A DNA stretch of 64,000 nt from Candidatus Adlerbacteria bacterium. GTDB taxonomy: Bacteria; Patescibacteriota; Minisyncoccia; Phycocordibacterales; SBAW01. The stretch covers positions 34,353-98,352 of the forward strand of contig CAINNF010000017.1 of NCBI GenBank assembly GCA_903851045.1, read 5' to 3'. Positions 30,145-46,255 of the stretch are shown here, one piece after another; position 1 is the first letter of the stretch, and each line of letters starts with the position of its first letter. The position numbers and the translations under genes were made by a program. The notes beneath the pieces were generated by a model. It made no database searches. It was not told the origin of the DNA and worked only from the letters and a program-made list of their open reading frames with translations.

Positions 30145-30381
30145 TATAGGCCACCTGTTTCCTTAAAAGCGAAGCATCGAGACGATGTCTCGTGCATCTT
30201 CTTGAAGAATCGTAAAGTACTCCAGTCTGCTCAGTATGCCGAGAGCGAAACACGCTGCCGAAAGAGCAAGCAGTATATCCATTGCAGCCTCCAGTGATGC
30301 CGTCAACAATCTACTACTAAACGAGTATTGTGGCAACCCCTCTGCAAGGATGCCGAAACCGACTAGAATAGAGGGGCTGTT

Positions 30382-32016
30382 ATGAGCGACCAGATACAAG
30401 AAATTAAGGACCGGCTGAGCATCGTTGATGTGGTTGGGCAGTATGTACAGCTCAAGCGAGCGGGGAGGACGATGACGGCTCGGTGCCCCTTTCATAAAGA
30501 GCGGACGCCGTCGTTCCATGTGTCGCCTGAGCGGGGTACCTACATCTGTTTTGGGTGTGGCGAAAAGGGTGATATCTTCTCGTTCGTCGAGCGTATCGAA
30601 GGGGTGGATTTTAAGACGGCACTGGAGGAGTTGGCGGCGAAGGCGGGGATCAAACTGGAGCGTCGTCATGGTCAGGAGGCGGAGCATAAAGAGAAGGACG
30701 AGAAGCTGCGCGAAGTGTGTGAAGCGGCGACGCAGTACTACGAAGCACAGCTCGCGAAGCGGCCGGATGTGTTGGAGTATCTGAAGAAGCGTGCGGTCAC
30801 CGACGAGACCATCAAACACTGGCGCATCGGCTACGCGCCTGCGCACTGGCAAGACGTGAGCGATCATCTAGTATCGCTGAAGTTCTCCAAAGACGACATT
30901 GCGGACGCGGGACTCGCGGCGAAGTCAGAGCGCAAGCCGGGCGAGATATATGACCGCTTTCGCGGTCGTATCATGTTCCCGATCAGTGATGCGCAGGGGA
31001 GAGTTATCGCGTTCTCGGGGAGATTTTTTGAGGATGTGGTGAGCGAAGCCCGCAAAGCTCCTTCGGAGCCGCGGGCCGAGCCCGCGAAATATGTGAACAG
31101 TCCCGAGACGTTGCTTTTTAAAAAGTCGCGAGTCATGTACGGGTTCGACAAGGCGAAGAATGCGATCCGCAAAGCTGACTGCGTGCTGCTCGTCGAGGGT
31201 CAGTTCGACCTTATCATGTCTCACCAGTCAGGACTGCCGTTCGCGGTCGCAATTTCAGGCACGGCGCTGACCCCTGAACACCTGTCACTTTTGGGGCGAC
31301 TGACAAAACGCCTTATTTTGGCGCTCGATGCGGACGATGCGGGTGTGCGTTCGGGGCTCAGGAGCGCTCAGATGGCGCTCCAGGTTGGGTTCGATGTAAA
31401 GGTGCCAACCTTCCCACACGGTAAGGATCCGGCTGATGTCGCGAAAGAAGACCCCGAGGCGCTCAAACAAGCGATCCGGGCATCGAAGACTTCGGTCGAG
31501 TTCTTTCTCGAGGCACTGCGCTCGGGTATCAAAGATGAACGTGCGTACAAAAAGGTGGTCGAAGCGCAGATACTGCCGCTTATCGCCGCGATGCCGAGCA
31601 AGATCGAGCAAGAACACTTCATCCGTATCGTCGCAGGCAAGATCTCCGTCTCGGAACTTGCGGTGCGCGAAGAGGTAGCGAAACGAAAGGTGTTGCCGCT
31701 GGAGATGGAGGATGTTGGCACGGTATCTCCGGCCAAAGAGAGCGCACCGACCGAGCTCGACCCCATAGAGAAGAAGGCAGCCATGCTCCTCTTCACCTTT
31801 GCACCCGATTCTCCCCAGGCAGTTAAGTTGGTAACCTTGCTGGGTGAAGAAAAGATCAACACCTTACGCGATCGCCTCCAGGCCGAGGCCGAGGTGTGGC
31901 GATTCAAGTTCGAAGCGGAGCTCGCTGAACATTCACCTGATGTGATCGCAGAGGACATGCTCGCAGATATCGAACGGACCGTGACACGGCAGCGGTTGAA
32001 GATGCGGTTTCGATAA
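30382..32016 (+). CDS. dnaG: DNA primase
   Basis: Zinc finger CPFHKERTPSFHVSPERGTYICFGCGEKGD, TOPRIM motifs LLVEGQFDLI and ALDADDAGVRSG. 544 aa. Confidence 0.9.
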   Translation: MSDQIQEIKDRLSIVDVVGQYVQLKRAGRTMTARCPFHKERTPSFHVSPERGTYICFGCGEKGDIFSFVERIEGVDFKTALEELAAKAGIKLERRHGQEAEHKEKDEKLREVCEAATQYYEAQLAKRPDVLEYLKKRAVTDETIKHWRIGYAPAHWQDVSDHLVSLKFSKDDIADAGLAAKSERKPGEIYDRFRGRIMFPISDAQGRVIAFSGRFFEDVVSEARKAPSEPRAEPAKYVNSPETLLFKKSRVMYGFDKAKNAIRKADCVLLVEGQFDLIMSHQSGLPFAVAISGTALTPEHLSLLGRLTKRLILALDADDAGVRSGLRSAQMALQVGFDVKVPTFPHGKDPADVAKEDPEALKQAIRASKTSVEFFLEALRSGIKDERAYKKVVEAQILPLIAAMPSKIEQEHFIRIVAGKISVSELAVREEVAKRKVLPLEMEDVGTVSPAKESAPTELDPIEKKAAMLLFTFAPDSPQAVKLVTLLGEEKINTLRDRLQAEAEVWRFKFEAELAEHSPDVIAEDMLADIERTVTRQRLKMRFR

Positions 32017-32090
32017 CCGTCATCGGACAGATGTATTGTTCGACCACATCATTTTGCAAACGCGGTATGGACGAGAGATAATTGGGTAGC

Positions 32091-32708
32091 ATGAAGCATT
32101 TCCGCATACTGCCGTCCCGGTACTCTTTTCGTTTGGTCACGAAAAAAGATTTCCCACGTTCATCCACCGTTCAACCTCGTGCCGCGCCACTGTCCGAAGT
32201 GGTCGTCGAAGCAAACGGCACCGAGGTTGATGTAAGTAAACGAATGTTCCTTAAGCTCGCGGGTCTCGCGGGTCTTGGTGTCGTGGCATCGCAGATGCTC
32301 CCCGGCAAAGCGAGTGCGTATGTGATGGGTAGCACACCAACATCTCCAGTCGTCGGACTAAAGGATTCGACGAACACGAGGATAGACCCTGCGACCGCTG
32401 CGGGTCTTGGGGTGAGTAAGGTGTCGACGTCGCTCTCGTCGTCGGGAGTCGTATATACGCCCACATCCGGCAAAAAGATACACGTGTATGCGTGCCGTTT
32501 TTCGCTGACCGCCGATGCAACCTCGGTGTCGTTTCGATTCACCTCCGGTGGGACCGATTATGAGATGTATGTGTCACCGAAGGCGGGCGGTCTCTATGGA
32601 GCGAACAACCACCCGAACTATATTGAGGGTGGGGCGAACCAAGCGCTGTACTGTGTGATATCGGGGACGACTACGGTGCAAATTAACATTGACTACCTTG
32701 AGGCATAG
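32091..32708 (+). CDS. secreted protein with Tat-like (KR) signal peptide and beta-rich domain (205 aa)
   Basis: ATG 32091. SKRMFLKLAGLAGLGVVASQMLPGKASA resembles the twin-arginine motif S-R-R-x-F-L-K with KR substitution. First gene of the island. Confidence 0.5.
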   Translation: MKHFRILPSRYSFRLVTKKDFPRSSTVQPRAAPLSEVVVEANGTEVDVSKRMFLKLAGLAGLGVVASQMLPGKASAYVMGSTPTSPVVGLKDSTNTRIDPATAAGLGVSKVSTSLSSSGVVYTPTSGKKIHVYACRFSLTADATSVSFRFTSGGTDYEMYVSPKAGGLYGANNHPNYIEGGANQALYCVISGTTTVQINIDYLEA

Positions 32709-32736
32709 TCATGTATAATCAAAGATAATATCCATT

Positions 32737-35700
32737 ATGGCCAGACGAGTAGTAGAAGAAATATTTACCGGTGCGACGGTGCCGTACACATCGTATGACT
32801 CCACGAAGATAGTCACCGGGGATCTTATCGAGCAGTACATCGGCGCGAATCCGTCCGACAAATATATTGGTCCAACTCGTGTTGGGCGTGATTCGACGGG
32901 GACCATCTATGGCATGGGTCGTCCGTTCGAGGCGACCGCCGGTGTAGCGGGCGTATTTCCCCATGTTGTCCGTTGGGCGAATAAGTCTGGATACTATACG
33001 ACCGGTACGGTCGCTGTCTCTGGTACGAGCGTCACTGGTAGCAGCACGGCATGGCTCACCAATGGCGTGCCCATCGGTGCGACCATCGGCTTTGGCACCA
33101 CCGACCCGACGCAGGTGACCACCTGGTATACCATCAACGCTATTACGTCGGATACAGCGATTACGATAGGCACTTCGGCCGGTACTATCGCGGGCGGTAC
33201 ATCCTTCGTTATCAACAAGACCTTGCAGACCGACTGGGTATTTTTGGGAGACGGTTCTGCGGCTGCGGCAACCCGCAAGATACAGCTCTATGAGTTCAAC
33301 CGAAGCACCTCTGCTTTTACTGCAAAAGGATATGCGACACTTAACTACCCCTATGCCGGCACACAGGGCACCTATGTGCTGCACGGCCTTAAGGTGTCCT
33401 ATCAACCCTATACCACGGGTACTGTCCAATCCGGCGGCATGACGCCCAATGGTGCCTATTACAGCACTGGCACCGTTGCTGTCACGACTACGGCTGTGAC
33501 AGGCACTGGTACTACGTTCACTGCCGCTATGCAGGGTATGATGATCGGGTTTGGCTCGACCAACCCAGATTCCATCGCTACGTGGTACTACATCCAGACG
33601 TTTGGTTCGACCACAGCCCTCACACTTGCGACTTCAATTGGTGCAACTGCGATACCTGCAAGTACGCCCTATGTCATAGCGACCATATACAATGTCGGTA
33701 CCGTTGCGGTATCGGGTACGGGCGTCACGGGTACCGGCACCACCTTCTCCAACACCGGTATCTACAATGTGGCAGGTATGGCCATCGGCTTTGGCTCTGT
33801 GAACCCCGGCCAGATTACCACGTGGTATACCATCCAAACATGGGGCTCGAGCACGTCACTCACACTCTCAACATCAGCAGGGAGTCTCGGCTCTGGTCTC
33901 TCATATGTAATTGTTATCATGGCAGGTACGGCGTCGGTGTCGGGCAACGCGGTCACTGGTGTTGGTTCAAGCTTCTCGACCACGACCCAGGCGGGTATGC
34001 TCATTGGTTTTGGCTCGGTCAACCCCGCTTCGATAAGTAATTGGTATGTGATTAGTGCGGTCGGATCGACGACCGCGATGACTCTGGTGACCAGTCCGGG
34101 CACGGTCGGAGCCGGTCCATATGTCATCGTTATCGGTTCGATCGTTGGTTCGGGGACTTTGTGGTCCACGAGTAGAATCGCGGTCGGTTCGCGCATAGGC
34201 TTTGGTTCGACCGACCCAACACAGATATCCACCTGGTACTACGTCAACGCTATCGACAGCGATACTATCATGAATATCCAAGCGTCCGCGACAGCGACCG
34301 GTGTCGGAGGCGCCATGGTCGCGCTCTCGCTCGCCGCGAGTACGCCGTATGTGATAGAAGATCTTAAGATAGTCACCACTGCCACGAACGGCACCACTGC
34401 CACGAACGGTGGGCTATTCGTCGCCATGGGCCTTTCCTATGGCGATTTTGTGAACAGCGGCACCACTATCTCTGCCGCAACGATGATCGACAAGATAAAA
34501 GCGAACTACTGGCTCGGTGACGCAGCCACCTCGAACAACACCACCGCGTGCGCCTGTGTTATCGACGACTTCGTCTCGTGGACGACGCAGTACCGCTACG
34601 TCATCGACGGTGCCGGCGGTACCAGCGCAAGAGTCTACAAATATAATATTCGCAGCGGTCTATCCATACCCACCAGTGGTACCAACGGTAAGGACATCAC
34701 GGCGTTCATGTTCAGCACGTTGGCCCAAACGACGGCCAACAACCTACCTGCTATCGCTGCCAACAACAGTGTCGCATGCATCGCCACGCTCAACCATGGC
34801 CCTGGCGCAGGTGTGAAATGTCTCTATTTCATGAGTATTGCAAAGATACATCGTGCCAGAATTAGCGACATTACCACCAACGCATCGACCTGGTGGACAG
34901 ACTCCATGGTCGAAATACCGACTGGCGGTGCGGCAACCTACACCGCCTCGAGCGTGCTCAACCAAATTGCCGTGGACACCCAGATAGATCGCCTCGTCAT
35001 CACCACCAGCGGTGCCGCCACGTCGCCCGCCTCGAACCGCGCGTATGTCACCCAGTACAATGCGGTCAATAGTCCGATGGATCATATGTTCTTGGTCGAA
35101 TCCAGACAGCTCGACCAGTCATCCGAAGATGGCGCGGCTGCTCCGCACCCGAGCCTCATCGCCAGTACCTTCCTGTCGCTTTGGTCAGAAGGGGGGATAA
35201 CCTATATCGCTAAGACTGGCGCTGCTGCTACGATAAGTCAGATATATGCACTGCCTCTGGGTGCTGACTGGGCGTACGCGAACGGGACGGTCAACCAACG
35301 TCTGATAACCCCGGCGCTCGCCACCACGAATGCGGTCAAACTGGTGCGTGTGTATGTGAACAGTCAACCCTTTGCGGGGAGCGCGAACGTCTCGTCTCCA
35401 GGCAACCTGACGATTCCAAGCGAACCGTACCGACTACTCTATCGAACATCTGGTATCAGTGACAACTCGGGGACATGGACGGCGCTCACCGACTATACGG
35501 GGGATCTCTCGGGAGCGACCCCGGGGTCACAGATACAATTCGCGATCGAGTTTCGTACTATCGGCACGTTCTGTATTCCTAATAGAGTCTATAATCTCGC
35601 CTGTGTGTACGAAGATAATACGACCGACAGTCACTACCAACCGTCCGCTGGCCTCTCTTCGGTCACGACCAAGACGTTCGCATGGCGCTTTGCGACCGCG

Positions 35701-35955
35701 TGGGGCGGCACGGTGCCAACCTTGCGCGTGACACTTTTCGACGCGGTGAGCGGCGCACAGCTGTTCACCGACACGACCGCAGCATCACCCTTGCTCTGGC
35801 AAAAGACGACGAGCGGTGCCGGCGGATGGGGTGCGTATGACACGAACGATCTCACCGCATCTCCGGATGCGAAGTATAGCAATACATACATCAGCTACAC
35901 GCCGACGTCCCTTGGAGACAATATTAAGGTTCGCGCTCTGCTCACACAGGCATAA
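32737..35955 (+). CDS. 1072-aa Gly/Thr/Ser/Ala-rich repeat protein, no signal peptide
   Basis: Five or more ~75-aa repeats of the form TGTVAVSGTxVTGTGTTF...IGFGSxNPxxITTWYTIQTxGSxTxLTLxTS between ~33.0 and 34.3 kb. The remainder is beta-rich low-complexity. ATG 32737 is 29 nt after the upstream gene. Confidence 0.65.
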   Translation: MARRVVEEIFTGATVPYTSYDSTKIVTGDLIEQYIGANPSDKYIGPTRVGRDSTGTIYGMGRPFEATAGVAGVFPHVVRWANKSGYYTTGTVAVSGTSVTGSSTAWLTNGVPIGATIGFGTTDPTQVTTWYTINAITSDTAITIGTSAGTIAGGTSFVINKTLQTDWVFLGDGSAAAATRKIQLYEFNRSTSAFTAKGYATLNYPYAGTQGTYVLHGLKVSYQPYTTGTVQSGGMTPNGAYYSTGTVAVTTTAVTGTGTTFTAAMQGMMIGFGSTNPDSIATWYYIQTFGSTTALTLATSIGATAIPASTPYVIATIYNVGTVAVSGTGVTGTGTTFSNTGIYNVAGMAIGFGSVNPGQITTWYTIQTWGSSTSLTLSTSAGSLGSGLSYVIVIMAGTASVSGNAVTGVGSSFSTTTQAGMLIGFGSVNPASISNWYVISAVGSTTAMTLVTSPGTVGAGPYVIVIGSIVGSGTLWSTSRIAVGSRIGFGSTDPTQISTWYYVNAIDSDTIMNIQASATATGVGGAMVALSLAASTPYVIEDLKIVTTATNGTTATNGGLFVAMGLSYGDFVNSGTTISAATMIDKIKANYWLGDAATSNNTTACACVIDDFVSWTTQYRYVIDGAGGTSARVYKYNIRSGLSIPTSGTNGKDITAFMFSTLAQTTANNLPAIAANNSVACIATLNHGPGAGVKCLYFMSIAKIHRARISDITTNASTWWTDSMVEIPTGGAATYTASSVLNQIAVDTQIDRLVITTSGAATSPASNRAYVTQYNAVNSPMDHMFLVESRQLDQSSEDGAAAPHPSLIASTFLSLWSEGGITYIAKTGAAATISQIYALPLGADWAYANGTVNQRLITPALATTNAVKLVRVYVNSQPFAGSANVSSPGNLTIPSEPYRLLYRTSGISDNSGTWTALTDYTGDLSGATPGSQIQFAIEFRTIGTFCIPNRVYNLACVYEDNTTDSHYQPSAGLSSVTTKTFAWRFATAWGGTVPTLRVTLFDAVSGAQLFTDTTAASPLLWQKTTSGAGGWGAYDTNDLTASPDAKYSNTYISYTPTSLGDNIKVRALLTQA

Positions 35956-35963
35956 TCTCGCAT

Positions 35964-36626
35964 ATGAAAGTACGCATCTATCAAGACCAACCGGTACCTG
36001 ACAGCCCAGGCATCCTCGTGTTGTCACCGACGGGGGACTATGCCCCGTTCGATTTTATCGAGTGTTACCTTGCGGGTATGCCGGGGCAGTCGTACTGTGC
36101 GCATCAAGCGCAGTTCGTTAAGTTCGGTAGCATCGTATATCGAGAGGTAGAGTATATCAATCTGCTTAACCAGCTTGGGTTAGTGAACATCCAGCCAGAA
36201 ACGCTCCAGGATATGTTGTTGAAGGACCAATCGACCATCGTGATAGACAAGGATCCACAAGACATCGTCACACCGACGGCAGTATCGGCGGTCGTGGCGG
36301 ATGTGACGGTGACCGCACCTGCGAACCAATACTCCACCACGACGGACGAGATCATTCCTCCCACGACGACCACGACCGATACGGTTGCGAGCTCGACCCA
36401 AGCTGTTTCGCTGCCCATCGATACGAGTACCACTACTCCTGTGACTATTCCCGACGCCACCTCCACGCCACCTCTGGAAGGGTTTAGCACAACGACGGTG
36501 CCGATACTTGATGCAAGCACGACCACGTCAGCCGACCCGACTGCCGCGAGCACGACAGACACGACGGCGAGCACCTCGACCGCTGCGCAAGTTCCCGCAT
36601 CCGACTCACGATTAACCGCCTTCTGA
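35964..36626 (+). CDS. hypothetical protein with Thr/Ser/Pro-rich C-terminal half (220 aa)
   Basis: ATG 35964, 9 nt after the upstream stop. The C-terminus is TTTTTD...STTTP...ASTTD low complexity. Confidence 0.5.
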   Translation: MKVRIYQDQPVPDSPGILVLSPTGDYAPFDFIECYLAGMPGQSYCAHQAQFVKFGSIVYREVEYINLLNQLGLVNIQPETLQDMLLKDQSTIVIDKDPQDIVTPTAVSAVVADVTVTAPANQYSTTTDEIIPPTTTTTDTVASSTQAVSLPIDTSTTTPVTIPDATSTPPLEGFSTTTVPILDASTTTSADPTAASTTDTTASTSTAAQVPASDSRLTAF

Positions 36627-36634
36627 TTTTGCGT

Positions 36635-36820
36635 ATGGCTCTTACCGATATCGATTTTCAAAATGGTGAGGGTCAGGATTTTATCCTTGAGTTGCCGAGT
36701 GTGGTATATAGCGGCGTATTAACCGACATACTCATCGAGCCCAGCGGGAGTCAGTTTTTTGTGCTCGAGACGGCGAAGATAGTCAACTCGGGCAACAAGA
36801 TCTTTATCATGTCCGAATAA
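36635..36820 (+). CDS. small hypothetical protein (61 aa)
   Basis: ATG 36635 (the track uses TTG 36629). Ends 6 nt before the tatC ATG. Confidence 0.35.
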   Translation: MALTDIDFQNGEGQDFILELPSVVYSGVLTDILIEPSGSQFFVLETAKIVNSGNKIFIMSE

Positions 36821-36826
36821 GTGTGT

Positions 36827-37609
36827 ATGGACCGCCTGACCGCATACGTCGAGACCTACGGAGACTACTTAGAGGACGTTCGTCGTCGTTTGTACGTGGT
36901 CGTGATCATTTTCGTGTGCATCTTCGTCGCTGGATTCTTTGCGACACCCTATTTGGTCAAGCTCATGACGAGTTTCTTGAAGATCTCGAGCGTGTCTATT
37001 GTCGCGACCGCACCCTTTCAGCTTATCGATCTGGCGATGGATGTCGGGTTCTTTTTGGCTGTCGTGTTCACGAGTCCGGTGCTTTTGTATCACATCTATC
37101 AGTTCCTTCGTCCCGGACTCCTCTACGCTGAGCGCCGCATTTTCTTTTTTCTCATACCGGTCGGGGTGGTGCTTTTCATGCTCGGCTTTACGTACGGTTT
37201 CGCCATCATGTACTGTGCGCTCGGTGCGGTGGCGATTGTTAATCAGAGTGTCGGCATCGTGAATCTTTGGGACATCAGTCTGTTCATGTCGCAGATGTTG
37301 CTCACCTCGACGCTGCTCGGTTTGTTGTTCGAATTTCCCATCATCATCAGTTTTCTTATTCGTCTCGGGGTGGTGCAAGTCGACTTTCTGCGTGCGAAAC
37401 GTCGGCATGCGATCGTGATTATCTTTTTGTTCGTTGGACTGCTGCCACCAACGGATGGTTTGTCGCTTATCCTTATGTCCGCACCGCTCGTGGCGATCTA
37501 CGAGCTTACGATTATACTTAATGCACAGCGTGTGGGGGTGGCAACCACGCGGTGCTTATCGTGTTCTTGTTCGGTGCGAAGAAGATTCCAGAGCTCACGA
37601 GCGGTGTAG
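36827..37609 (+). CDS. tatC: Sec-independent (Tat) translocase subunit TatC
   Basis: Six-TM topology with TatC-like N-terminus MDRLTAYVETYGDYLEDVRRRLYVVVIIF and C-terminal PPTDGLSLILMSAPLVAIYELTIIL. The last ~25 codons (VGVATTRCLSCSCSVRRRFQSSRAV) are probably read-through into the degenerate tatA copy, so the true C-terminus is uncertain. Confidence 0.75.
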   Translation: MDRLTAYVETYGDYLEDVRRRLYVVVIIFVCIFVAGFFATPYLVKLMTSFLKISSVSIVATAPFQLIDLAMDVGFFLAVVFTSPVLLYHIYQFLRPGLLYAERRIFFFLIPVGVVLFMLGFTYGFAIMYCALGAVAIVNQSVGIVNLWDISLFMSQMLLTSTLLGLLFEFPIIISFLIRLGVVQVDFLRAKRRHAIVIIFLFVGLLPPTDGLSLILMSAPLVAIYELTIILNAQRVGVATTRCLSCSCSVRRRFQSSRAV

Positions 37610-37692
37610 CGGACGCCATCCGTCACTTGCGCGGCGCGTTCCGGGACGAGCCAGGTGCTGACACAGTGGTCGCCACTACTAGAAAAAAATAA
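37521..37692 (+). pseudogene. degenerate tatA paralog (frameshifted / N-terminally truncated)
   Basis: Frame 1 from 37552 encodes VLIVFLFGAKKIPELTSGVADAIRHLRGAFRDE, parallel to intact TatA LIVFLFGSKKIPEFGKMFADGIRTLRSGFKDE, and shares the 22-nt stretch cttatcgtgttcttgttcgg with it. The nearest upstream ATG (37521) is in a different frame. Copy 1 is 11 nt shorter than copy 2 between ATG and the shared block. Confidence 0.4.
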
Positions 37693-37705
37693 GAACGTAC
37701 ATCGT

Positions 37706-37876
37706 ATGCCATTCGACCTCGGTGCTAAAGAACTGTTAATTATAGCCGCGCTTATCGTGTTCTTGTTCGGATCGAAGAAGATTCCCGAATTCGGGAAAAT
37801 GTTCGCTGACGGTATCCGCACCCTGCGAAGCGGCTTCAAGGACGAGGTCGCGGTACAGGCGGTAGCAAAGAAATAG
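37706..37876 (+). CDS. tatA: Sec-independent (Tat) translocase subunit TatA/E
   Basis: MPFDLGAKELLIIAALIVFLFGSKKIPEFGKMFADGIRTLRSGFKDE: TM helix, FG hinge, amphipathic helix. 56 aa. Confidence 0.8.
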   Translation: MPFDLGAKELLIIAALIVFLFGSKKIPEFGKMFADGIRTLRSGFKDEVAVQAVAKK

Positions 37877-37918
37877 GAGCATCACCGCTCTCATGGGGGA
37901 GAGGTATTTCGTATATCT

Positions 37919-40900
37919 ATGAGGATAGAAAGATTTTTCGTATTGCACATCTTGCGGCCCGCGCCAGCGTTTTTTCTCTTTCTTCTACTTTTGTGCGTCC
38001 CCGCATTATCTTTAGCAGGTAGTTATCCACAGTATCCGGCGGGCTCCGTGGTCACGATTGGCGAGTTCGTCTACAACGACGACTACTCACCAACCACCGA
38101 CAACTGCGACGTGACAGTGTATGATCCGACCAACACGAAGGTGGTGTACGCTTCGACCACCGCACGGTCGGATGGATGGCACTCCTATACATTTACTCCA
38201 GCATCTGTCTTGGGTGTATGGTCGTCCAACATCTCCTGTGGTTCGAGCGCGGGGGGCACGCTGGTACGACAAGATGAATCGTTCGTGGTAGTGAGTCCTC
38301 CTGCATTGCAGTCTGATATCCAAACTGCCTCATCTTCGATCGCTGCGGTCGTGAACGCACATACTGATGCTGCGACCGGGAACGTCACCTCAGGTGTGAA
38401 TGCGCACACTGACGTTGCGTCGTCATCTATCGGCACGATGCTGTTGTCGATACCTTTGGCGGTATGGAATATCACTGCCAGCACCTTGACCACGGTCGGC
38501 TCGATCGGTAAGCAGCTTGCGACCAATGTAGACTCGGTACTTTCGGGAATTTCAAGTGGTATCGCACTGGCCGTCAACGGTCACACCGACACGGCGCTCA
38601 ACACCGCCTCATCCTCAATCGCTGCAGTCGTCAACGGCAACACCAACACTGCAACAGCTGGCATCACTTCAGGTGTGAACAGTCACACGGATTCGCAACT
38701 TGCGCTTGCAACCTCGTCGGTTAATGCACACACCGACTCCGCGACTGCGGGCATTACTTCAGGCGTCAATGGTCACACCGACACGGCGCTCAACACGGCC
38801 TCTTCTTCAATCGCTGCGGTCGTCAACGGCAACACGAACACTGCTACAGCTGGCATCACAACTGGCGTGAACGGTCACACGGATTCGCAACTTGCGACCG
38901 CAACCTCTTCGATTGTTGCTGTTGTGAACGGTCATACTGATTCGGCCGCTGCTGGCATTACCACAGCTGTTAATGGGCACACGGACATAGCATCTTCGTC
39001 GATCGCAGCCGTCGTCAATGGTAATACAAATACACAAACGAGTGGCATCGCGTCAGCAGTTAACACTAATACTAACAATATCGTCACTGCCGCATCCTCC
39101 TCGCTTGGTAGCACTCTCGGTTCGATCGCGTCCTCCATCCTCTCGGTGCCGGCGAACGTGTGGTCCTTCACTGGCCGCACGCTCGACTCCTTTGGCTCAA
39201 TCACCGGTGATGTTGCCACCGCCGTCTGGAGTGCAGCCACACGCACCCTCACGGGAGCTTCTCTCACAACGGGTTCGCTCGCGACTCAGTCTGATGTGAA
39301 CACCGCCTCATCCTCAGTCACGACCCTCGTGAACACACACACCGACTCCGCCACTGGCGGTATCGCATCGACAGTCAATGGTCACACCGACACTGCGCTT
39401 AACTCGGCATCCTCTTCAATAGCCGCTGTGGTGAATGGCAACACGAACACTGCGACCGCGGGTATCACGTCTGGCGTCAACGGGCACACCGATACTGCGC
39501 TCAATACCGCATCCTCGTCAATCGCCGCGGTCGTCAACGGCAATACGAACACTGCGACCGCGGGTGTAACTTCAGGGGTGAACTCCCACACGGACACACA
39601 ATTGGCGCTCGCTACGTCGTCGGTCAATTCTCACACCGATACGGCGACCGCGGGTATCACGAGCGCTGTTAATGCGAACACCACGAACATAGTTACTGCG
39701 GCATCATCCTCTCTCGGTTCCACCCTTGGTTCGATTGCATCCTCAATCCTCTCGGTGCCTGCGAACGTCTGGTCCTTCACTGGTCGTACACTCGACTCCT
39801 TTGGCTCGATTACAGGAGATGTGGCGACTGCGGTCTGGGGCGCAGCGACTCGAACACTCACTGGGGCAACTCTCACTACTGGCTCGCTTGCGACTCAGTC
39901 TGACGTAAACAATGCTTCTTCGTCAGTTGCGGCAGGTGTGAATGCACATACAGACTCAGCGACCGGTGGTATTGCGTCCACAGTCAATGGACACACAGAT
40001 ACCGCACTCAATACCGCCTCGTCTTCGATTGCCGCGGTCGTCAACGGCAACACGAACACTCAAACTGCGAGTATTACCTCGGGTGTGAACGGACACACCG
40101 ACTCGCAGCTCGCTACCGCAACCTCCTCGATCGCCGCTGTGGTCAACGGTCATACTGATTCGGCCACTGCTGGCATTACCACAGCTGTTAATGCGCACAC
40201 GGACATAGCCTCTTCCTCGATCGCGGCTGTAGTGAATGGTCACACCGACTCAGCGGCCGGTGGTATCGCTGCAGCGGTCAATACCAACACCACCAACGTC
40301 GTTACTGCCGCATCCTCTTCGCTGGGATTGACGCTCGGTTCTATTGCGTCTTCGATTCTCTCAGTACCTGCGAATGTGTGGGCATACTCGGGACGTACTC
40401 TGACCTCCTTCGGCACGATTACCGGCGACGTTGCGACCGCGGTCTGGGGCGCTGCCTCGCGAACACTCACGGGAGCTACCCTTACCACCGGCTCACTCGC
40501 AACTCAGACTGACGTGAACAATGCTTCGTCCTCGGTCGTGGCTGGAGTGAATGCGCATACGGACTCTGCAACCGGCGGCGTCGCATCAACGGTTAATGGA
40601 CACACAGACACCGCACTCAATGCTGCTTCGTCTTCGATCGCTGCGGTCGTCAACGGCAACACCAACACTGCGACTGCTGGCGTAACGACCGCAATCAACG
40701 CGCACACCGACTCCGCGACCGCAGGTGTCGCTTCGGCAGTCAACACCAACACCACTAACGTCGTCACCGCTGCATCGTCATCGCTCGGCTCGACGCTCGG
40801 TTCGATCGCGTCGGCTATCGTGTCGATGCCAGCGACGATAGTGTCGAGCGTGTGGAGCGCGACGTCTCGCACGCTCACCTCACTGAGTTTGTCATCCCAG

Positions 40901-41854
40901 AGTCCATGGGTGGTATCGCTTTCAAACTCGAGCACTGTTGCAGCGGGCAGTACGTACTATGCGACCGTTACCACAACCTACAATGGTACGTTGACCGACT
41001 CGGCGAATATCCCAACGATTACCATCTATGATCCAAGCAGGAACGTGATAGTCAACGCAGGCACCATGACGCGTACCGGTGTTGGTACCTACCAGTACAC
41101 CTACCTCACCAGCGGCAGCGCGCCGGGCGGCGTATGGGAGACCGATGTCACCGCGAATGTTGCGACCGGTCAGACGCTACCTGGTACGCAGTATTGGAAC
41201 CTCACGACATCTCCCGCGCAGGTCATAGTGAATAGTGTGAGCGCGGTCACCGTGCCTACCATCGGGGCGAACATTACGATCACCAACGAAGGTCTTGGCG
41301 GATATGAATATCACTATGCGTGGTGTGTCGTCGCCGATATCAGTACGCCCTGCGATGGAAGCAGTAACGACGTATTCTACGCGAACGCGGCGAAGTTCAT
41401 AAATCCGGGCGACAGCTTTAACACCACGCTCACTGCCACCGTGCCAACACCCGGTTCGTACTACTTTAAAGTCATCGCATACTTCGGAACCGAAAGTTCC
41501 GGTGCGTCACGTCAGTTTACCGCTACGGCGGGGAGCTCGAATAACGGCGGTTCCGGTGGCTCAGGTAGTTCCGGTGGCGGCAGCTCTGGGGGCGGCGGTT
41601 CGGGTGGTGGCGGAGCTGCTGTGGTGACCGCGGTACCATCGACACCAGCAGGGCAATGCAACGGGGCTGATCTGAATGGTGATCATGTGGTTAACTATAT
41701 CGACTTTTCAGTGCTGCTGTATTTCTGGCATACGCAGCCACCATTTAGGAATCCGTGCGTCGACATCAATCAAGACGGCAAGGTCGACGCACGAGACTTC
41801 TCCATCATGCTTTCCCAGTGGAAGACCGCAGGCACACCGTTTAAAAAGAGATGA
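37919..41854 (+). CDS. 1311-aa secreted fibrous protein with ~2.5 kb of hendecad-type tandem repeats, Gly/Ser linker and C-terminal dockerin domain
   Basis: Signal peptide MRIERFFVLHILRPAPAFFLFLLLLCVPALSLA. About 840 aa of VNGHTDTALNT / ASSSIAAVVNG / NTNTATAGITSG 11-residue units. Linker SSNNGGSGGSGSSGGGSSGGGGSGGGG. Duplicated dockerin segments DLNGDHVVNYIDFSVLLYFW and DINQDGKVDARDFSIMLSQW. Confidence 0.8.
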   Translation: MRIERFFVLHILRPAPAFFLFLLLLCVPALSLAGSYPQYPAGSVVTIGEFVYNDDYSPTTDNCDVTVYDPTNTKVVYASTTARSDGWHSYTFTPASVLGVWSSNISCGSSAGGTLVRQDESFVVVSPPALQSDIQTASSSIAAVVNAHTDAATGNVTSGVNAHTDVASSSIGTMLLSIPLAVWNITASTLTTVGSIGKQLATNVDSVLSGISSGIALAVNGHTDTALNTASSSIAAVVNGNTNTATAGITSGVNSHTDSQLALATSSVNAHTDSATAGITSGVNGHTDTALNTASSSIAAVVNGNTNTATAGITTGVNGHTDSQLATATSSIVAVVNGHTDSAAAGITTAVNGHTDIASSSIAAVVNGNTNTQTSGIASAVNTNTNNIVTAASSSLGSTLGSIASSILSVPANVWSFTGRTLDSFGSITGDVATAVWSAATRTLTGASLTTGSLATQSDVNTASSSVTTLVNTHTDSATGGIASTVNGHTDTALNSASSSIAAVVNGNTNTATAGITSGVNGHTDTALNTASSSIAAVVNGNTNTATAGVTSGVNSHTDTQLALATSSVNSHTDTATAGITSAVNANTTNIVTAASSSLGSTLGSIASSILSVPANVWSFTGRTLDSFGSITGDVATAVWGAATRTLTGATLTTGSLATQSDVNNASSSVAAGVNAHTDSATGGIASTVNGHTDTALNTASSSIAAVVNGNTNTQTASITSGVNGHTDSQLATATSSIAAVVNGHTDSATAGITTAVNAHTDIASSSIAAVVNGHTDSAAGGIAAAVNTNTTNVVTAASSSLGLTLGSIASSILSVPANVWAYSGRTLTSFGTITGDVATAVWGAASRTLTGATLTTGSLATQTDVNNASSSVVAGVNAHTDSATGGVASTVNGHTDTALNAASSSIAAVVNGNTNTATAGVTTAINAHTDSATAGVASAVNTNTTNVVTAASSSLGSTLGSIASAIVSMPATIVSSVWSATSRTLTSLSLSSQSPWVVSLSNSSTVAAGSTYYATVTTTYNGTLTDSANIPTITIYDPSRNVIVNAGTMTRTGVGTYQYTYLTSGSAPGGVWETDVTANVATGQTLPGTQYWNLTTSPAQVIVNSVSAVTVPTIGANITITNEGLGGYEYHYAWCVVADISTPCDGSSNDVFYANAAKFINPGDSFNTTLTATVPTPGSYYFKVIAYFGTESSGASRQFTATAGSSNNGGSGGSGSSGGGSSGGGGSGGGGAAVVTAVPSTPAGQCNGADLNGDHVVNYIDFSVLLYFWHTQPPFRNPCVDINQDGKVDARDFSIMLSQWKTAGTPFKKR
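38320..40870 (+). repeat. near-identical in-frame tandem repeats: 33-nt (11-codon) units nested in a ~600-nt higher-order repeat, 3 full copies plus one partial
   Basis: The motif block ASSSLGSTLGSIASSILSVPANVW...TGSLATQSDVN recurs at ~39.10, 39.70, 40.31 and (truncated) 40.78 kb. The intervening NxHTDxAxxG units are repeated dozens of times. Confidence 0.8.
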
Positions 41855-42744
41855 GACACTACCGAAACATATTTTGGATCATAGCCGTGCTCACCGTACT
41901 CCCAGGTTCGGCTCATGCCGCTACCGACGTATTGACGATAGAGCCACCGATTGGCGTTGTGTCGGTTGGAGATACGGTGCTGGTGCCTGTCTACCTTTCG
42001 ACCTTGCGGAATGTGAACGCGGTGGATGGGGAAGTGAGCGTCATCGGTCCAGTGACTGTCGTCTCGAATGACACGAGCGGCTCGGTGTTGACGCTCTGGC
42101 CACTGCCGCCGTCTCTGAGTGGTAGCGCGATATCCTTCACTGGTGGTGCGGTCACCAGCTTGACCGGGGCGCATCTAAAATTATTCTCTATCGCGGTGAA
42201 GATCACTGGTGCAGGACCCATCACGTTCAAAGTACAACATGGCACCGCCTATCTGGCGGATGGACAAGGGACTCCGCTTTCACTTACGGGTGTTGCGGCA
42301 GGGGTCACGGCGGGTACGGGTGCGTCAGCACGAAACGATCTTGCGATCGAGATACAACATGACACGACTCCACCCGAGCCGTTCACTATCGACTATGGGA
42401 GAGATCCACAGGTGTACGGTGGTAACTATTTCATTAGCTTTGGAGCGGTCGACACGCTGGGTGGCATAGACCACTACGATGTCACCGAAGGGACTCTCCC
42501 ATCGGTGCGCAGCGGTGATACATACGTGCTTCAGCGCCAGGGTCAGGACGAGACGATTACAGTCACCGCATATAACAAAGCCGGCCGTGCCCGCGTATCA
42601 ACCTACACCGTCTCGGTGTCTCGTCCAGCCGGAGGGGTGGAGTGGATGTGGCTCTTGATTATACCACTGCTGTTGTTCGCTGCTGTCTCATACGTACTCT
42701 ATTGTCGAAGTACGAGACGTCGTGTGAAAAAGAGGAAGAGATAA
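41851..42744 (+). CDS. membrane-anchored cohesin-domain protein (297 aa)
   Basis: ATGA overlap with the upstream stop. Signal peptide. Cohesin-like beta-sandwich blocks (VSVGDTVLVPVYLSTLRNVNAVDGEVSV...LTLWP...ISFTGG...ITFKV). C-terminal TM (WMWLLIIPLLLFAAVSYVLY) plus basic stop-transfer tail RRRVKKRKR. Confidence 0.6.
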   Translation: MRHYRNIFWIIAVLTVLPGSAHAATDVLTIEPPIGVVSVGDTVLVPVYLSTLRNVNAVDGEVSVIGPVTVVSNDTSGSVLTLWPLPPSLSGSAISFTGGAVTSLTGAHLKLFSIAVKITGAGPITFKVQHGTAYLADGQGTPLSLTGVAAGVTAGTGASARNDLAIEIQHDTTPPEPFTIDYGRDPQVYGGNYFISFGAVDTLGGIDHYDVTEGTLPSVRSGDTYVLQRQGQDETITVTAYNKAGRARVSTYTVSVSRPAGGVEWMWLLIIPLLLFAAVSYVLYCRSTRRRVKKRKR

Positions 42745-42748
42745 TACT

Positions 42749-44278
42749 ATGTTGTGCACGTCATCTGTCAAACAAGTCACGCGCCTCTCCGTTCGCATGT
42801 TCGTGGTGTCCGTGCTCATGATGCTACTGTGCGGTCCCCACGCAGCGCGCGCAGCCACGGTGTCGTTGACGCCGATGGTGTCGTCGATCTCAGCGGGGAA
42901 CATCGTTACGGTACACGTCATGGTGAACACGCAGGGAGTTGCTATCAACGACGGGAGCGCCACGATCCAGTTCCCGACCGATCTTCTTGAGGTGGTGTCG
43001 GTTTCGAAAAGTTCATCCATTTTCTCGCTCTGGGTCGAAGAGCCAACGTTCTCCAACAGCGCCGGTACGGTGACGTTCGATGGTGGGGTACCGACGCCGG
43101 GGTATCAGGGAGGTAGTGGAGACATGCTCGATATTACCTTTCGCGCAAAAAAGACAGGTGCCGCTTCGATACTGGTTACGAACGTGAACGTGCTCGCCAA
43201 CGATGGACAAGGGACGGACGTATTCAGCGGGTCGAGCAATGACACTATCACCATCACGCCGTCAGTACCAGCCGCGCCGATCCAGACACCTGCACCCATA
43301 GCAAAGCCTGCTGCGACACCGACCGTCATACAGACCACCCCGACCGACACGACGGTGCACATCACTTCCTCGACCCATCCATCACAGACTGCCTGGTATG
43401 CGCAGAACACGGCACAGCTGGGGTTCGACCTACCCCCGAAGACCGCCGCGATCAAATTCTTGGTGAGTCAGGACCAAACGACGGTTCCGACAAAGACATA
43501 CAAGCCTGCGATCACACAAAAGTCGACCGACGCGCTCACCGACGGCACATGGTACGTCCAAGTAAGTGCACTTGCGGGCGGGGTATGGGGTCCGGTGAGC
43601 ACCTATACGCTCAATATCGATACTATGCCGCCTCGGTTGAGTATTACATCGCTCGTCTATTCGTCGGACACCAAGACTGTCACGGTCACCGGCTCAGCAC
43701 AGGACGATACCTCTGGGTTTGGGTCACTGTCGCTGGTGGTCGATGGCGTCGATGCGCGAAGTGACGTGGCGGGACTGTTGACCCAGGGGACGGTCCAGGT
43801 ACCGCTTGATGCGTCTCCGGGGCAGCATGTCGTAAAAGTACGAGCGGTCGATCGAGCGGGGAATTATATGGATTCGCAAGACTTCTACGTCATGGTACCG
43901 GCCGAACCGTACGTGCCCAAGGGCGTAGTGGCGGTCACGACGTGGTATGTCGAGACGCACGGCTCGATGGTACTGGTCGTGTTAGCGCTCTGCATCTCGT
44001 TGTTGTCGTTGATCTTCAATGTCATACTTTGGAACAAACTCCGCATCTACCGAAAACGACCACACTCCGGGGTTGTGCACATGAGAGAGCAGACGAAAGA
44101 GCGGCTTATGGACCTCAAAAAAGATCTTCACAAACAGGCAAAGCTGTACGATAAGACGGGTACCCACAAGGCGACTACGAAGGAAGAGGCTGACTACGCG
44201 AAGAAGATGCAGGCCCATATAGCCGATGTCGAACAATATGTGGACCGCAAGATACAGGACATAACGAAGCGTCCCTGA
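42749..44278 (+). CDS. membrane-anchored cohesin-domain protein with Ig-like spacer and charged cytoplasmic tail (509 aa)
   Basis: Signal peptide. Cohesin-like blocks (ISAGNIVTVHVMVNTQGVAINDGSATIQFPTDLLEVVSVSKSSSIFSLWVEEPTFSNSAGTVTFDGG). Pro/Thr linker, beta-rich middle, TM MVLVVLALCISLLSLIFNVILW, ~90-aa helical cytoplasmic tail. Confidence 0.6.
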   Translation: MLCTSSVKQVTRLSVRMFVVSVLMMLLCGPHAARAATVSLTPMVSSISAGNIVTVHVMVNTQGVAINDGSATIQFPTDLLEVVSVSKSSSIFSLWVEEPTFSNSAGTVTFDGGVPTPGYQGGSGDMLDITFRAKKTGAASILVTNVNVLANDGQGTDVFSGSSNDTITITPSVPAAPIQTPAPIAKPAATPTVIQTTPTDTTVHITSSTHPSQTAWYAQNTAQLGFDLPPKTAAIKFLVSQDQTTVPTKTYKPAITQKSTDALTDGTWYVQVSALAGGVWGPVSTYTLNIDTMPPRLSITSLVYSSDTKTVTVTGSAQDDTSGFGSLSLVVDGVDARSDVAGLLTQGTVQVPLDASPGQHVVKVRAVDRAGNYMDSQDFYVMVPAEPYVPKGVVAVTTWYVETHGSMVLVVLALCISLLSLIFNVILWNKLRIYRKRPHSGVVHMREQTKERLMDLKKDLHKQAKLYDKTGTHKATTKEEADYAKKMQAHIADVEQYVDRKIQDITKRP

Positions 44279-44293: not shown

Positions 44294-44322
44294 TTGATTT
44301 TTCCCCAGTATTAGGATATACT
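44294..44322 (+). promoter_or_regulatory. sigma-70-like promoter for rpoD (TTGATT-17 nt-TATACT)
   Basis: TTGATT at 44294-44299 and TATACT at 44317-44322, 16 nt upstream of the rpoD ATG. Confidence 0.5.
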
Positions 44323-44338
44323 GCTTGCACTTACGCAA

Positions 44339-45622
44339 ATGCCAAAACCAAAAAAAGGAGTCAAAAAGGTGGTTTCCAAGACGGCCCGACCAGCACGGTC
44401 GGGCGGTGCTTCTCGTGCTGTTAAAAGTGTCGTAGCCAAGGCGAAGAAGTTTCGTGATGCGGCAGCGACTCGCCGAGTCAAACTGGCGCCTAAAAAGACG
44501 GTTGTGAAGGGTGCGAAAACCGCTACAAGTAAGGCGGCGGCTAAGGTCGCCAAGCCGACCAATGAACGCGACAAGAAGGCCGAGTCGCTCATGGCGCGTG
44601 GCCGACAGAGCGGGTTCATCACCTATGATGAAATTCTCAAAGTGTTCCCGACCATCGAGACGGACGTCAACTTCCTGGAAGAACTATACGAGAAGTTCGC
44701 CGCCGCCCATATCGACGTGCTCGAAGGCGGCGGCATGCTCGAGATCGTCGATGATGCTCCCGAGAAGGGGTACGCGCGTTCCGACTCGCAGTACGACTCG
44801 ATCCAAATGTACCTGCGCGAGATAGGGAAGTATCCACTGCTCAACGCACAATCCGAGCGCGACCTCGCGAAGCGTATCGTCGATGGTGACGAAGAGGCAC
44901 GCAACCTGCTTGCGCGCGCGAACCTGCGCCTCGTCGTCTCTATCGCCAAGAAGTATGTCGGTCGTAGCCCTGACCTGACACTGCTCGACCTCATCCAAGA
45001 GGGCAACCTTGGCCTCTTCAAGGCAGTCGACAAATTTGATTACACCAAGGGATACAAGTTCTCGACCTACGCGACGTGGTGGATCCGCCAAGCTATCACC
45101 CGTGCGCTCGCCGACCAGTCGCGCACCATCCGCATCCCTGTCCACATGGTGGAGACCATTGCGAAGTACAAGCAAGTCTCGCGTCGCCTCTCCCAAGACC
45201 TCGGCCGCGACCCACTTGCCGAGGAGATCGCGCTCGAAATGGGTGTCGATGTCGACAAGATATACCAGATCGAGAAGATCGACCAAGACACCGTGTCGCT
45301 CGAAAGCCCAGTGGGCGACGAGAGCGAAGATGGCAAGTCAGTCTTGGGCGACTTCATCAAAGACGATAAGATTCTCTCGCCCGACCAAGAGGTCTCCCGC
45401 CGTATCCTCGCCGACCAGCTCAAAGAGATCCTCGACGAACTCAGCCCGAAAGAGCGCGAGATCCTCAAACTCCGCCACGGGCTGGAGGACGGCATCTACC
45501 ACACGCTGGAAGAGGTTGGCAAAAAGTTCGGCGTCACCCGCGAACGCATCCGCCAAATCGAAGCCAAGGCTTTAGAGCGCATCCGCACCCACGACAAAGC
45601 AAAACGACTACGGAGCTATTAG
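44339..45622 (+). CDS. rpoD: RNA polymerase primary sigma factor (sigma-70) with ~80-aa Lys/Ala-rich N-terminal tail
   Basis: Regions 1.2-4 ([84 protein letters not shown]). N-terminus [23 protein letters not shown]...[41 protein letters not shown]. Confidence 0.9.
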
Positions 45623-46203: not shown

Positions 46204-46255
46204 TTTGGGAGAGCTTACCACCAGTCAGAATTTTATCAACGGCCACCTATTTAGA

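Follow-up and report, generated by a model that had tools for sequence, protein, structure and literature searches.

In a 64,000-nucleotide stretch of a Candidatus Adlerbacteria bacterium genome (assembly GCA_903851045.1, contig CAINNF010000017.1, positions 34,353 to 98,352; hereafter the window), the genes for DNA primase (dnaG) and the primary sigma factor (rpoD) are separated by a 12.3-kb interval whose genes all lie on the plus strand. Comparison across genomes indicates that the block is a clade-typical module, conserved in both gene order and gene content across many Patescibacteria (genomes of the Paceibacteria/Parcubacteria type), which in this particular lineage has been placed between dnaG and rpoD. 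In order, the module consists of four open reading frames (ORF1, ORF2, ORF3, and ORF4), the twin-arginine translocation (Tat) genes for TatC and one or two TatA proteins, a gene for a dockerin protein, and genes for two cohesin anchors. It is most likely a cell-attachment device. That a conserved module was relocated here is held with much higher confidence than the details of export and assembly that we propose for it. The block and its borders are composed as follows.

30382 to 32016, plus strand: dnaG, DNA primase, left flank (Pfam DNAG_N, 132 bits; Zn_ribbon_DnaG; Toprim)
32054 to 32082, plus strand: putative promoter-like site TTGCAA-17-GATAAT in the 74-nt dnaG-ORF1 spacer (consensus scan, 9/12)
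32091 to 32708, plus strand: ORF1, 205 aa (alternative TTG start at 32082)
32737 to 35955, plus strand: ORF2, 1,072 aa, of a family shared with phage adsorption-gene clusters
35964 to 36626, plus strand: ORF3, 220 aa, with a conserved N-terminal domain of ~100 aa and a Thr/Pro-rich low-complexity tail (alignment with L011 to L013)
36635 to 36820, plus strand: ORF4, 61 aa, with a conserved C-terminal ...IFIMSE motif (alignment)
36827 to 37609, plus strand: tatC (PF00902, 136.7 bits, cut-off 25.1, full model 1-208)
37548 to 37692, plus strand: tatA1 remnant (three-frame translation; DNA alignment with L014)
37706 to 37876, plus strand: tatA2, 56 aa, the only intact TatA (PF02416, 33.4 bits, cut-off 21; TIGR01411, E = 2e-11)
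37919 to 41854, plus strand: giant protein, 1,311 aa (C-terminal Dockerin_1, 27.9 bits, cut-off 22.9)
41851 to 42744, plus strand: cohesin anchor 1, 297 aa (AlphaFold model with a pLDDT [predicted local distance difference test] of 90, Foldseek, profile search)
42749 to 44278, plus strand: cohesin anchor 2, 509 aa (homology to anchor 1 and to protein P0255)
44294 to 44322, plus strand: promoter-like site TTGATT-17-TATACT, 16 nt 5' of rpoD (consensus scan)
44339 to 45622, plus strand: rpoD, primary sigma factor, right flank (Pfam Sigma70 r1.1, r1.2, r2, r3, and r4)

An earlier sequence-only reading of the window had described a surface-protein island of about 12 kb that splits dnaG from rpoD. 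The split is borne out, with Pfam confirming both flanking genes, and the functional labels given to the island (Tat signal, tatC, tatA, dockerin, cohesins) are upheld, the Tat signal as a probable one. The count of eleven ORFs has to be corrected to nine intact genes and one tatA remnant (the list given with it sums to ten), and the gaps of 0 to 40 nt to computed intergenic gaps of -4 to 96 nt. As for the island itself, the insertion relative to the nearest relatives and the dense packing on one strand stand, while the mobile or foreign look does not.

Conservation of the module and its placement

For the survey of loci we took one genome per species and mapped each locus with phmmer, which gave 78 loci with an ORF2 homologue. 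TatA is present in 69 of these 78 genome loci, TatC in 68, ORF1 in 63, ORF4 in 61, ORF3 in 59, and the dockerin-ended protein and cohesin protein 1 in 55 each, and the whole gene set is found in 33 of the 38 loci that have enough flanking DNA. Among 49 complete modules, 35 are colinear and 14 have the dockerin and cohesin genes divergent from the Tat half (that is, from ORF1). Two tatA genes occur in 21 of the 78 loci, and three tandem ORF2 genes in 14 species-level genomes (including L070, L072, L078, L080, L082 to L085, and L087). Across about 50 to 70 species-level Patescibacteria genomes, the module lies at other chromosomal sites, with chromosomal neighbours that vary between genomes. Homologues of ORF2 number more than 1,200, all of them unnamed and many from bins assigned to Pacebacteria or Parcubacteria; three whose gene contexts were inspected first have the neighbours seen in the window. 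Many of the genomes with the module (L017 to L094) are titled "uncultured Gammaproteobacteria bacterium" or "uncultured Candidatus Saccharibacteria bacterium," which look like automatic or wrong labels.

The literature that we searched on Patescibacteria, Parcubacteria, or Paceibacteria in connection with Tat, cohesin, dockerin, or tail fiber does not describe the module. The parts are of known kinds (Tat, cohesin-dockerin, phage fibre-type proteins), and it is their combination, and the module as such, that is undescribed in that literature. The occurrence of TatA and TatC in Paceibacteria has been noted (PMC9166423), and an essential dockerin-domain protein has been reported in a Saccharibacterium (PMC10633639).

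With respect to the placement of the module, we observe that dnaG and rpoD are directly adjacent in 7 of the 7 relatives that show both genes (L006, L008, L009, L010, and, among more distant genomes, L011, L033, and L035), which agrees with the premise of the sequence-only reading that adjacency is the usual state. The gap from dnaG to rpoD is 20 to 42 nt in L006, L008, and L009, whose DnaG and RpoD proteins are 65 to 70% and 86 to 89% identical to those of the window. The upstream synteny of the window (a tRNA methyltransferase gene, trmD; fused rpoB-rpoC; dnaG) is kept in L008 and L009; L009 additionally keeps genes for S16 and a KH protein upstream, and the L006 contig starts at dnaG. The sister species (L014/L015; RpoD 96% and ORF2 96% identical) has the block genes in the same order as the window, ending 60 nt before rpoD. 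Since the block sits at the same site in L014/L015, the arrangement is older than the split between the window and the sister species. The synteny comparison proposed with the earlier reading thus has a divided outcome, the block being missing from L006, L008, and L009 and present at the same site in the sister species. Measured against the closest relatives to be had, the block counts as an insertion, and one that is neither recent nor strain specific.

Only the window and its sister species, among the 78 genome loci, have the module between dnaG and rpoD. An ancestral linkage of the module to this gene pair was considered and rejected: only 5 of the 78 loci, which belong to distant lineages and differ in orientation, have dnaG or rpoD within 10 kb of the module, a number close to the chance expectation for genomes of ~1 Mb. 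The dnaG of the window is 100% identical to contigs of five other assemblies, and the best database matches of its DnaG protein carry the names Paceibacterota, Parcubacteria, or Adlerbacteria. In the Joint Genome Institute (JGI) metagenomes, the 31 nt preceding the island, used as a query for an empty site or a variant junction, gave no match, and close relatives of ORF2 (>70% identity) were absent, with none above 51%.

In Escherichia coli and many other bacteria, dnaG and rpoD are part of the rpsU-dnaG-rpoD macromolecular-synthesis operon. The window resembles this operon in that both genes lie on the same strand and that the pair is adjacent in all relatives examined; it differs in that 12.3 kb come between the two genes, as they do in the sister species, and in that the dnaG of the window is preceded by a fused rpoB-rpoC gene and a small minus-strand ORF rather than by rpsU. 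The break between dnaG and rpoD is real, but it is a minor curiosity beside the module itself, and mainly shows the mobility of the module within these small genomes without recognisable mobility genes.

The sequence-only reading also held that rpoD had acquired a promoter-like element of its own next to the island. The TTGATT-17-TATACT site exists (9/12 consensus positions, in a region that has 19 such matches versus 11.4 +/- 4.0 by chance), and its hexamers and spacing are conserved in L014/L015, with the adjacent spacer diverged. Acquisition is unneeded, however, as a -10-like TATACT or TATAAT lies just 5' of rpoD in relatives that lack the block, too. The putative site in the dnaG-ORF1 spacer is the weaker of the two. 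No convincing intrinsic terminator was found inside the block; a hairpin at 37888 to 37903, after tatA2, was rejected as an internal terminator, as it folds no better than shuffled sequence (z = -1.1 in the window, z = 0.0 in L014). Because 14 of the 49 complete modules have divergent halves, the gene arrangement allows the Tat half and the cohesin-dockerin half to be separate transcription units.

The phage-type cassette and its Tat-type leader

The largest protein of the Tat half, ORF2, is all-beta and without a signal peptide, and contains five repeats of ~70 aa ("IGFG...WY"; one to three in other members of the family) and a six-bladed beta-propeller, with a phage tail complex as its best Foldseek match. 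Its conserved N-terminus packs into the predicted structure and is shared by the cellular and viral forms of the protein; since it is conserved in the viral forms too, it is not a signal peptide. Signal peptides were not found in ORF2, ORF3, or ORF4.

Relatives of ORF2 are encoded on 132 viral contigs of the IMG/VR database, at 37 to 48% identity, which is as close as many of the cellular ones, and in clustering they interleave with cellular sequences; ORF1 genes do not accompany them on these contigs. Genes like ORF3, related through its N-terminal domain, and like ORF4 each occur in 18 of 80 viral loci, the former mostly beside the ORF2 relative and the latter mostly directly after it. The ORF1 head domain, without a leader, is encoded on another four viral contigs, and in two of these (L177 and L178) the leaderless gene lies immediately 5' of an ORF2-like gene. 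Tat, dockerin, and cohesin genes are absent from all 80 viral ORF2 loci and from the four loci that the ORF1 profile added. The gene neighbourhoods are those of phages: collagen-like tail-fibre genes directly upstream (L100), a large terminase (L099), and holin and endolysin genes (L178); in L073, a genome with 63% G+C that is not from Patescibacteria, an "adsorption associated tail protein" stands in the same array as the ORF2-like gene. By their gene content, the viral contigs with the cassette are real phages or prophages. These arrangements indicate that ORF1 (head)-ORF2-ORF3-ORF4 is a phage adsorption-region cassette, to which the cellular version adds a Tat-type leader on ORF1.

Set against phage tail-fibre cassettes, the likeness lies in the order of the viral genes, with an ORF1-like gene, ORF2, and then the small ORF4 and ORF3 beside fibre or lysis genes. 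The differences are that the ORF2 family is absent from PHROGs and from deposited phages, which leaves its own role in the virion putative, and that the cellular copies have a Tat-type leader and are not accompanied by further virion genes. PHROGs likewise has no match to relatives of the ORF1 head domain. Within the island, PHROGs returned a function-unknown family for TatC and, for the giant protein, a single function-unknown match below threshold (E = 0.008), neither of them a virion protein.

Some ORF2-like genes have no Tat or cohesin neighbours (L067, L073, L086, L088, and L090; G+C up to 63%), and the genomes concerned are labelled Armatimonadota, Lysinibacter, Planctomycetaceae, Dependentiae, and Polaromonas. 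These genes probably belong to prophages of hosts outside the Patescibacteria, because the L073 copy sits in a phage tail/adsorption array. In the viral contig L099, the large terminase gene (12124 to 16167) is interrupted by intein and LAGLIDADG homing-endonuclease domains.

ORF1, the first gene of the module, encodes a long N-region, a Tat-type leader, one fibre-shaft-like repeat, and a conserved C-terminal head domain of ~100 aa; its profile has no match in the PDB. The leader (nt 32235 to 32318) consists of SKRMFLK, a hydrophobic h-region, and ASA; after S-K-R-M-F-L-K it reads LAGLAGLGVVASQMLPGKASA, with predicted cleavage before Y. The h-region is moderately hydrophobic and is followed by an A-x-A cleavage site, as expected of a Tat signal, and this A-x-A end is also present in aligned ORF1 homologues, including L011 to L013 and L016. 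A [KR]R-x-F-L-K motif with an h-region is found in 104 of 150 representatives of the ORF1 family (92 KR and 12 RR). Of the Tat consensus S/T-R-R-x-F-L-K, the F-L-K portion is conserved, whereas Lys-Arg mostly stands in the place of the twin arginine. In the 64-kb window, ORF1 is the sole protein with a [KR]R-type motif followed by a cleavable-type signal, and the other Tat-motif match, at 11528, looks like a segment of a membrane protein. Given the conservation of the motif and the linkage to tatC and tatA (68 to 69 of 78 loci), the sequence is best described as a Tat-type leader of the Lys-Arg variety.

Many proteins of ~240 to 300 aa (P0305 to P0400) match ORF1 solely in the N-region, the leader, and the first shaft repeat, and may carry other C-terminal domains. 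One protein among these matches (P0309) has 2,604 aa and 29 copies of the ORF1 shaft motif VG.K....RINPATEETL. Such matches suggest a wider family of putatively Tat-targeted fibre-like proteins with interchangeable heads.

The translocase genes of the window differ from those of the sister species. The TatC protein scores 124.3 bits against the TIGR00945 equivalog, below the cut-off of 132.7. Compared with L014, the window lacks 69 nt, a stretch that covers the stop codon of tatC, the intervening spacer, and the opening codons of tatA1; owing to this deletion, the last ~26 codons of tatC read out of frame into the tatA1 remnant, which overlaps the 3' end of tatC in another frame and has lost its start codon and transmembrane helix. 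In L014, TatC has 243 aa and ends in ...GVAATPE, and tatA1 is an intact gene of 59 aa. The deletion is identical in three independent assemblies and is therefore not an assembly error of one contig. What had been read as two copies of tatA is thus a remnant without a usable start, followed by one intact gene.

In Bacillus subtilis, phoD-tatAd-tatCd encodes a minimal TatA-TatC translocase, dedicated to one substrate, beside its cargo. The module is similar in that its TatA and TatC, without TatB, are clustered with a protein bearing a twin-arginine-type leader. It differs in three respects: the leader is mostly K-R and follows a long conserved N-region, phage-related structural proteins take the place of a cofactor enzyme or phosphodiesterase as cargo, and the cluster also holds a cohesin-dockerin surface system.

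The cohesin-dockerin half and divergence from the sister species

The giant protein has a Sec-type signal peptide, Thr/Ser/Ala-rich repeats of 203 aa and 34 aa, and a Gly/Ser linker. Its dockerin (nt 41669 to 41809, residues 1251 to 1297, PF00404) is type I-like, with the calcium-binding loops DLNGDHVVNYIDF and DINQDGKVDARDF. Across the survey, a dockerin ends the protein encoded 5' of the cohesin genes in 57 ORFs from 55 genome loci, with both loop motifs present in 51 of the 57; the length of this protein varies elsewhere from 312 to 2,290 aa, and the dockerin is constant.

Cohesin anchor 1 consists of a signal peptide, a cohesin domain, a domain like those of immunoglobulins (Ig) or fibronectin type III (FN3), and a C-terminal transmembrane helix. 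The top Foldseek matches of its model are cohesins (2w1n, E = 1e-8; 2xdh, template modelling [TM] score 0.77; 2jh2, TM score 0.80; 1aoh, TM score 0.70), and a profile of the cohesin family matches the Ruminococcus cohesins 5aoz and 5m2o in the PDB. Anchor 2 has a signal peptide, a cohesin-like domain, an Ig-like domain, a transmembrane helix, and a charged cytoplasmic tail of ~75 aa; its N-terminal part shares 31% identity with the anchor 1 cohesin domain (E = 2e-9), and over its full length it is homologous (E = 2e-38) to P0255, which carries PF00963 and PF19077. Neither anchor of the window matches the Pfam cohesin model PF00963, even at E <= 10, and PDB searches with the two sequences gave no match. 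These sequence-only searches missed the domain, and the cohesin assignment needed a profile and a structure model. The "two cohesin proteins" of the earlier reading are nevertheless supported by the fold of anchor 1, by PF00963 matches in 21 of the 34 sequences of alignment A3 (best E = 5e-10), and by the homology of anchor 2 to a PF00963 protein. All three proteins of this half have Sec-type signals. The adjacency of the genes in 55 of 78 loci suggests that the dockerin of the giant protein binds its cognate cohesins.

The module shares the cohesin fold and a two-loop, type I-like dockerin with cellulosomal and non-cellulosomal systems (Clostridium thermocellum anchoring scaffoldins; Archaeoglobus fulgidus, 2xdh) and the cohesin-plus-FN3/Ig architecture with C. 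perfringens GH84C (2w1n). Unlike in cellulosomes, the cohesins are anchored by a C-terminal transmembrane helix instead of S-layer homology domains or sortase, carbohydrate-active enzymes are lacking, and one dockerin protein of highly variable length (312 to 2,290 aa) goes with two cohesin proteins. A further difference from known cohesin-dockerin systems is that the Pfam cohesin model does not directly reach the proteins of the window.

Divergence from the sister species is uneven along the block. At the protein level, ORF2, ORF3, ORF4, and RpoD are 96 to 97% identical to L014, and the fibre (the giant protein), cohesin 1, and cohesin 2 are 71%, 63%, and 79% identical. Synonymous divergence (dS) from L014 is 0.03 for ORF4, 0.10 for ORF3, 0.30 for ORF2, 0.43 for tatC, 0.61 for tatA2, 0.65 for rpoD, 1.07 for cohesin 2, 1.2 for the giant protein, and 2.2 for cohesin 1. 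The ratio of nonsynonymous to synonymous divergence (dN/dS) is below 0.15 throughout, except for the 61 codons of ORF4 (0.52). Gene-wide positive selection on the fibre and cohesins was considered and rejected, with dN/dS values of 0.08 to 0.13 and dS high or saturated. The mosaic of dS values fits recombination that would homogenise some segments and replace exposed ones with divergent alleles.

Contigs of three assemblies break at the junction of dnaG and ORF1. Among the contigs of independent assemblies that stop at or near this boundary, L004 and L005 both end at window position 32080, the P0002 contig ends inside dnaG, and L014 begins at the last codons of ORF1. This hints that ORF1 may be multi-allelic in natural populations.

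Proposed function, alternatives, and neighbouring features

The reading that we favour, at somewhat better than even odds, is that a phage-type complex is exported in folded form through a dedicated TatAC translocase and displayed together with a cohesin-anchored fibre, for attachment to other cells. The ORF1 to ORF4 proteins would derive from, or be swapped with, a receptor-binding assembly of phages whose folding and oligomerisation normally take place in the cytoplasm. The Tat route would be needed because such a cytoplasmically folded assembly must be exported folded; the cellular ORF1 would bear the KR-type twin-arginine leader for it, and the module would supply its own minimal TatAC translocase. 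The pre-folded ORF1-ORF2 complex would then cross the membrane, with the signal-less ORF2 riding as a "hitch-hiker," carried out in the way that hydrogenase large subunits are on Tat-targeted small subunits, and with ORF3 and ORF4 as possible further partners, chaperones, or assembly factors. The giant repeat protein would leave by the Sec route and be held, through its C-terminal dockerin, on the cohesins of the two membrane-anchored proteins. The co-occurrence of the two halves suggests one surface device, and the parts together would form the attachment device of an ultra-small, probably episymbiotic cell, whose outward-facing components (fibre and cohesins) would be exchanged by recombination between lineages.

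Hitch-hiker co-export through Tat is established for hydrogenase-2 (HybO/HybC) and DmsA/DmsB of E. coli. The module is alike in that a small protein, ORF1 (205 aa), bears the sole leader and the adjoining large ORF2 (1,072 aa) has no signal; it differs in that no redox cofactor or maturation chaperone family was detected in the module, in that the exported complex would be very large, and in that the ORF1-ORF2 complex is putative.

Several points weigh against this picture. The leader of ORF1 is KR rather than RR, and the TIGR01409 Tat-signal model scores it at 14.7 bits, below the cut-off of 16.7, and matches only 6 of 20 aligned relatives at E <= 0.1 (best E = 0.0035). The structural matches of ORF2 are generic six-bladed propellers, and the fold is equally compatible with a role as an enzyme. 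Proteins of the ORF2 type (window, L073, and L178) have no match in deposited annotated phage genomes, and the family is missing from PHROGs, so that the phage role rests on the identity of the neighbouring genes. The ORF1-ORF2 complex itself is drawn solely from conserved adjacency in cells and phages, the functional link between the Tat half and the cohesin-dockerin half solely from their co-occurrence, and the whole mechanism, including export, from sequences and predicted structures. Finally, with tatA1 lost and the tail of TatC altered, the copy of the module in the window may be impaired.

A more far-reaching version, which we put forward tentatively and consider possible rather than probable, is that Patescibacteria domesticated a phage receptor-binding cassette, which they still trade with phages, and combined it with a KR Tat leader, a private TatAC translocase, and a cohesin-dockerin fibre mount into a host-attachment organelle. 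If so, symbionts and phages would draw on one shared pool of host-recognition modules, in which the exposed parts are replaced by recombination. Under either version, the module would put Tat to an unusual use, that of moving a structural complex of phage type, assembled in the cytoplasm, behind a natural Lys-Arg leader. It would also add a new case in which structural genes of phages have been taken into service by cells; the phage proteins concerned lack annotated homologues in PHROGs and in deposited phage genomes. Patescibacteria make up a large share of bacterial diversity, and most of them appear to live attached to other cells; to our knowledge, the attachment machinery of large Paceibacteria and Parcubacteria groups has not been identified. 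The module is a concrete candidate for it, present in dozens of species-level genomes and with surface-exposed parts that diverge fast.

The alternative that survives best, which we nevertheless regard as unlikely, is that two unrelated systems are merely neighbours, namely, a dedicated Tat operon secreting a soluble enzyme (ORF2 as a propeller-type glycosidase or sialidase-like hydrolase for feeding on glycans of a host or of the environment) and an ordinary cohesin-dockerin surface set. The ORF2 propeller does resemble sialidases, GH43 (glycoside hydrolase family 43) enzymes, lactonases, and phytases, the signals on the fibre and cohesins are of Sec rather than Tat type, and the divergent transcription of the halves in 14 of the 49 complete modules is what separate systems might show. 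Yet the halves stay together in 33 of the 38 well-flanked loci despite such rearrangements, the phage relatives of ORF2 are found among adsorption and tail-fibre genes and not among metabolic genes, and sequence searches of Pfam, NCBIfam, and the PDB detect no catalytic family.

Less probable still is the view of the sequence-only reading that the block is a foreign genomic island, acquired horizontally, that came to lie within the dnaG-rpoD operon and is now transcribed along with it. Its absence from the dnaG-rpoD junction of relatives with 65 to 70% DnaG identity is consistent with this, as are the nearest relatives of ORF2 beyond the sister species, which are only ~56% identical, and a measurable shift in synonymous codon usage: the pooled relative synonymous codon usage distance between island and flanks is 0.099, against a null of 0.059 +/- 0.011 with a maximum of 0.090 (500 random partitions of flank genes), and G+C at third codon positions is 0.59 to 0.68 in the island versus mostly 0.61 to 0.78 in the genes on either side, two of which lie lower (0.58 and 0.61). 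The di- and tetranucleotide signatures also deviate over 32 to 44 kb, but this deviation is confounded by the Thr/Ser/Ala/Gly-rich proteins encoded there, and the G+C content of the block equals that of its flanks. The compositional comparison suggested with the earlier reading thus yields equal G+C, a mild shift in codon usage, and a confounded k-mer signal.

Signs of mobility are lacking as well. The island ORFs scanned have no Pfam, NCBIfam, or PHROG match to an integrase, recombinase, or transposase, the window contains no tRNA gene and no Rfam match, and the block is not flanked by direct or inverted repeats (best local alignment 15, versus 13.8 +/- 2.0 for shuffled sequence). Moreover, the module is typical of the clade and not exotic, the sister species shares the block, purifying selection acts on it, and any donor would necessarily have been another Patescibacterium.

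A decayed prophage, a phage-derived (tailocin-like) particle, or a decoy that displays phage receptor-binding proteins against infection is the least credible reading and a very improbable one: four genes do have phage homologues in a phage-like arrangement, and a phage tail complex is the top Foldseek match of ORF2, but PHROGs and Pfam detect no capsid, portal, terminase, tail-tube, sheath, baseplate, or lysis homologues in the block, and, unlike in prophage remnants, the gene order with TatAC and the cohesin-dockerin genes is kept across dozens of species under purifying selection.

Around the block, the window has further features of its own. The TATACT of the promoter-like site before rpoD is part of a 15-mer, GGATATACTGCTTGC, of which the window holds exactly two copies (0.08 expected), at 30266 to 30280 on the minus strand and at 44314 to 44328 on the plus strand. 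The minus-strand copy faces a hydrophobic ORF of 39 aa (29891 to 30010, minus strand) between rpoBC and dnaG, which is followed by a strong, 13-bp, GC-rich, terminator-like hairpin at 29847 to 29876. This ORF may be a small, independently transcribed gene.

The rpoB and rpoC genes are fused in a single ORF of 2,280 aa (22459 to 29301, plus strand), with Rpb2 domains 1 to 7 followed by Rpb1 domains 1 to 5. The fusion is also present in L008 (2,279 aa) and L009 (2,290 aa), and the L011 lineage has a separate rpoC; no rpoBC fusion in the candidate phyla radiation is described in the literature that we searched. On the 3' side of rpoD there is a second lineage-specific block (46151 to 55140), which separates rpoD from the PDDEXK_1 and thioredoxin genes that directly follow it in L009. 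This second block contains a gene for a Ham1-type inosine triphosphatase (46151 to 46831), a 227-aa ORF without a family match (47176 to 47859), and a minus-strand operon that resembles a group 4 [NiFe]-hydrogenase or Mrp complex, with a fused 30-kDa/49-kDa subunit, two Proton_antipo_M proteins, NADHdh, and Oxidored_q6. In the sister species L014, a different gene, of 270 aa, follows rpoD.

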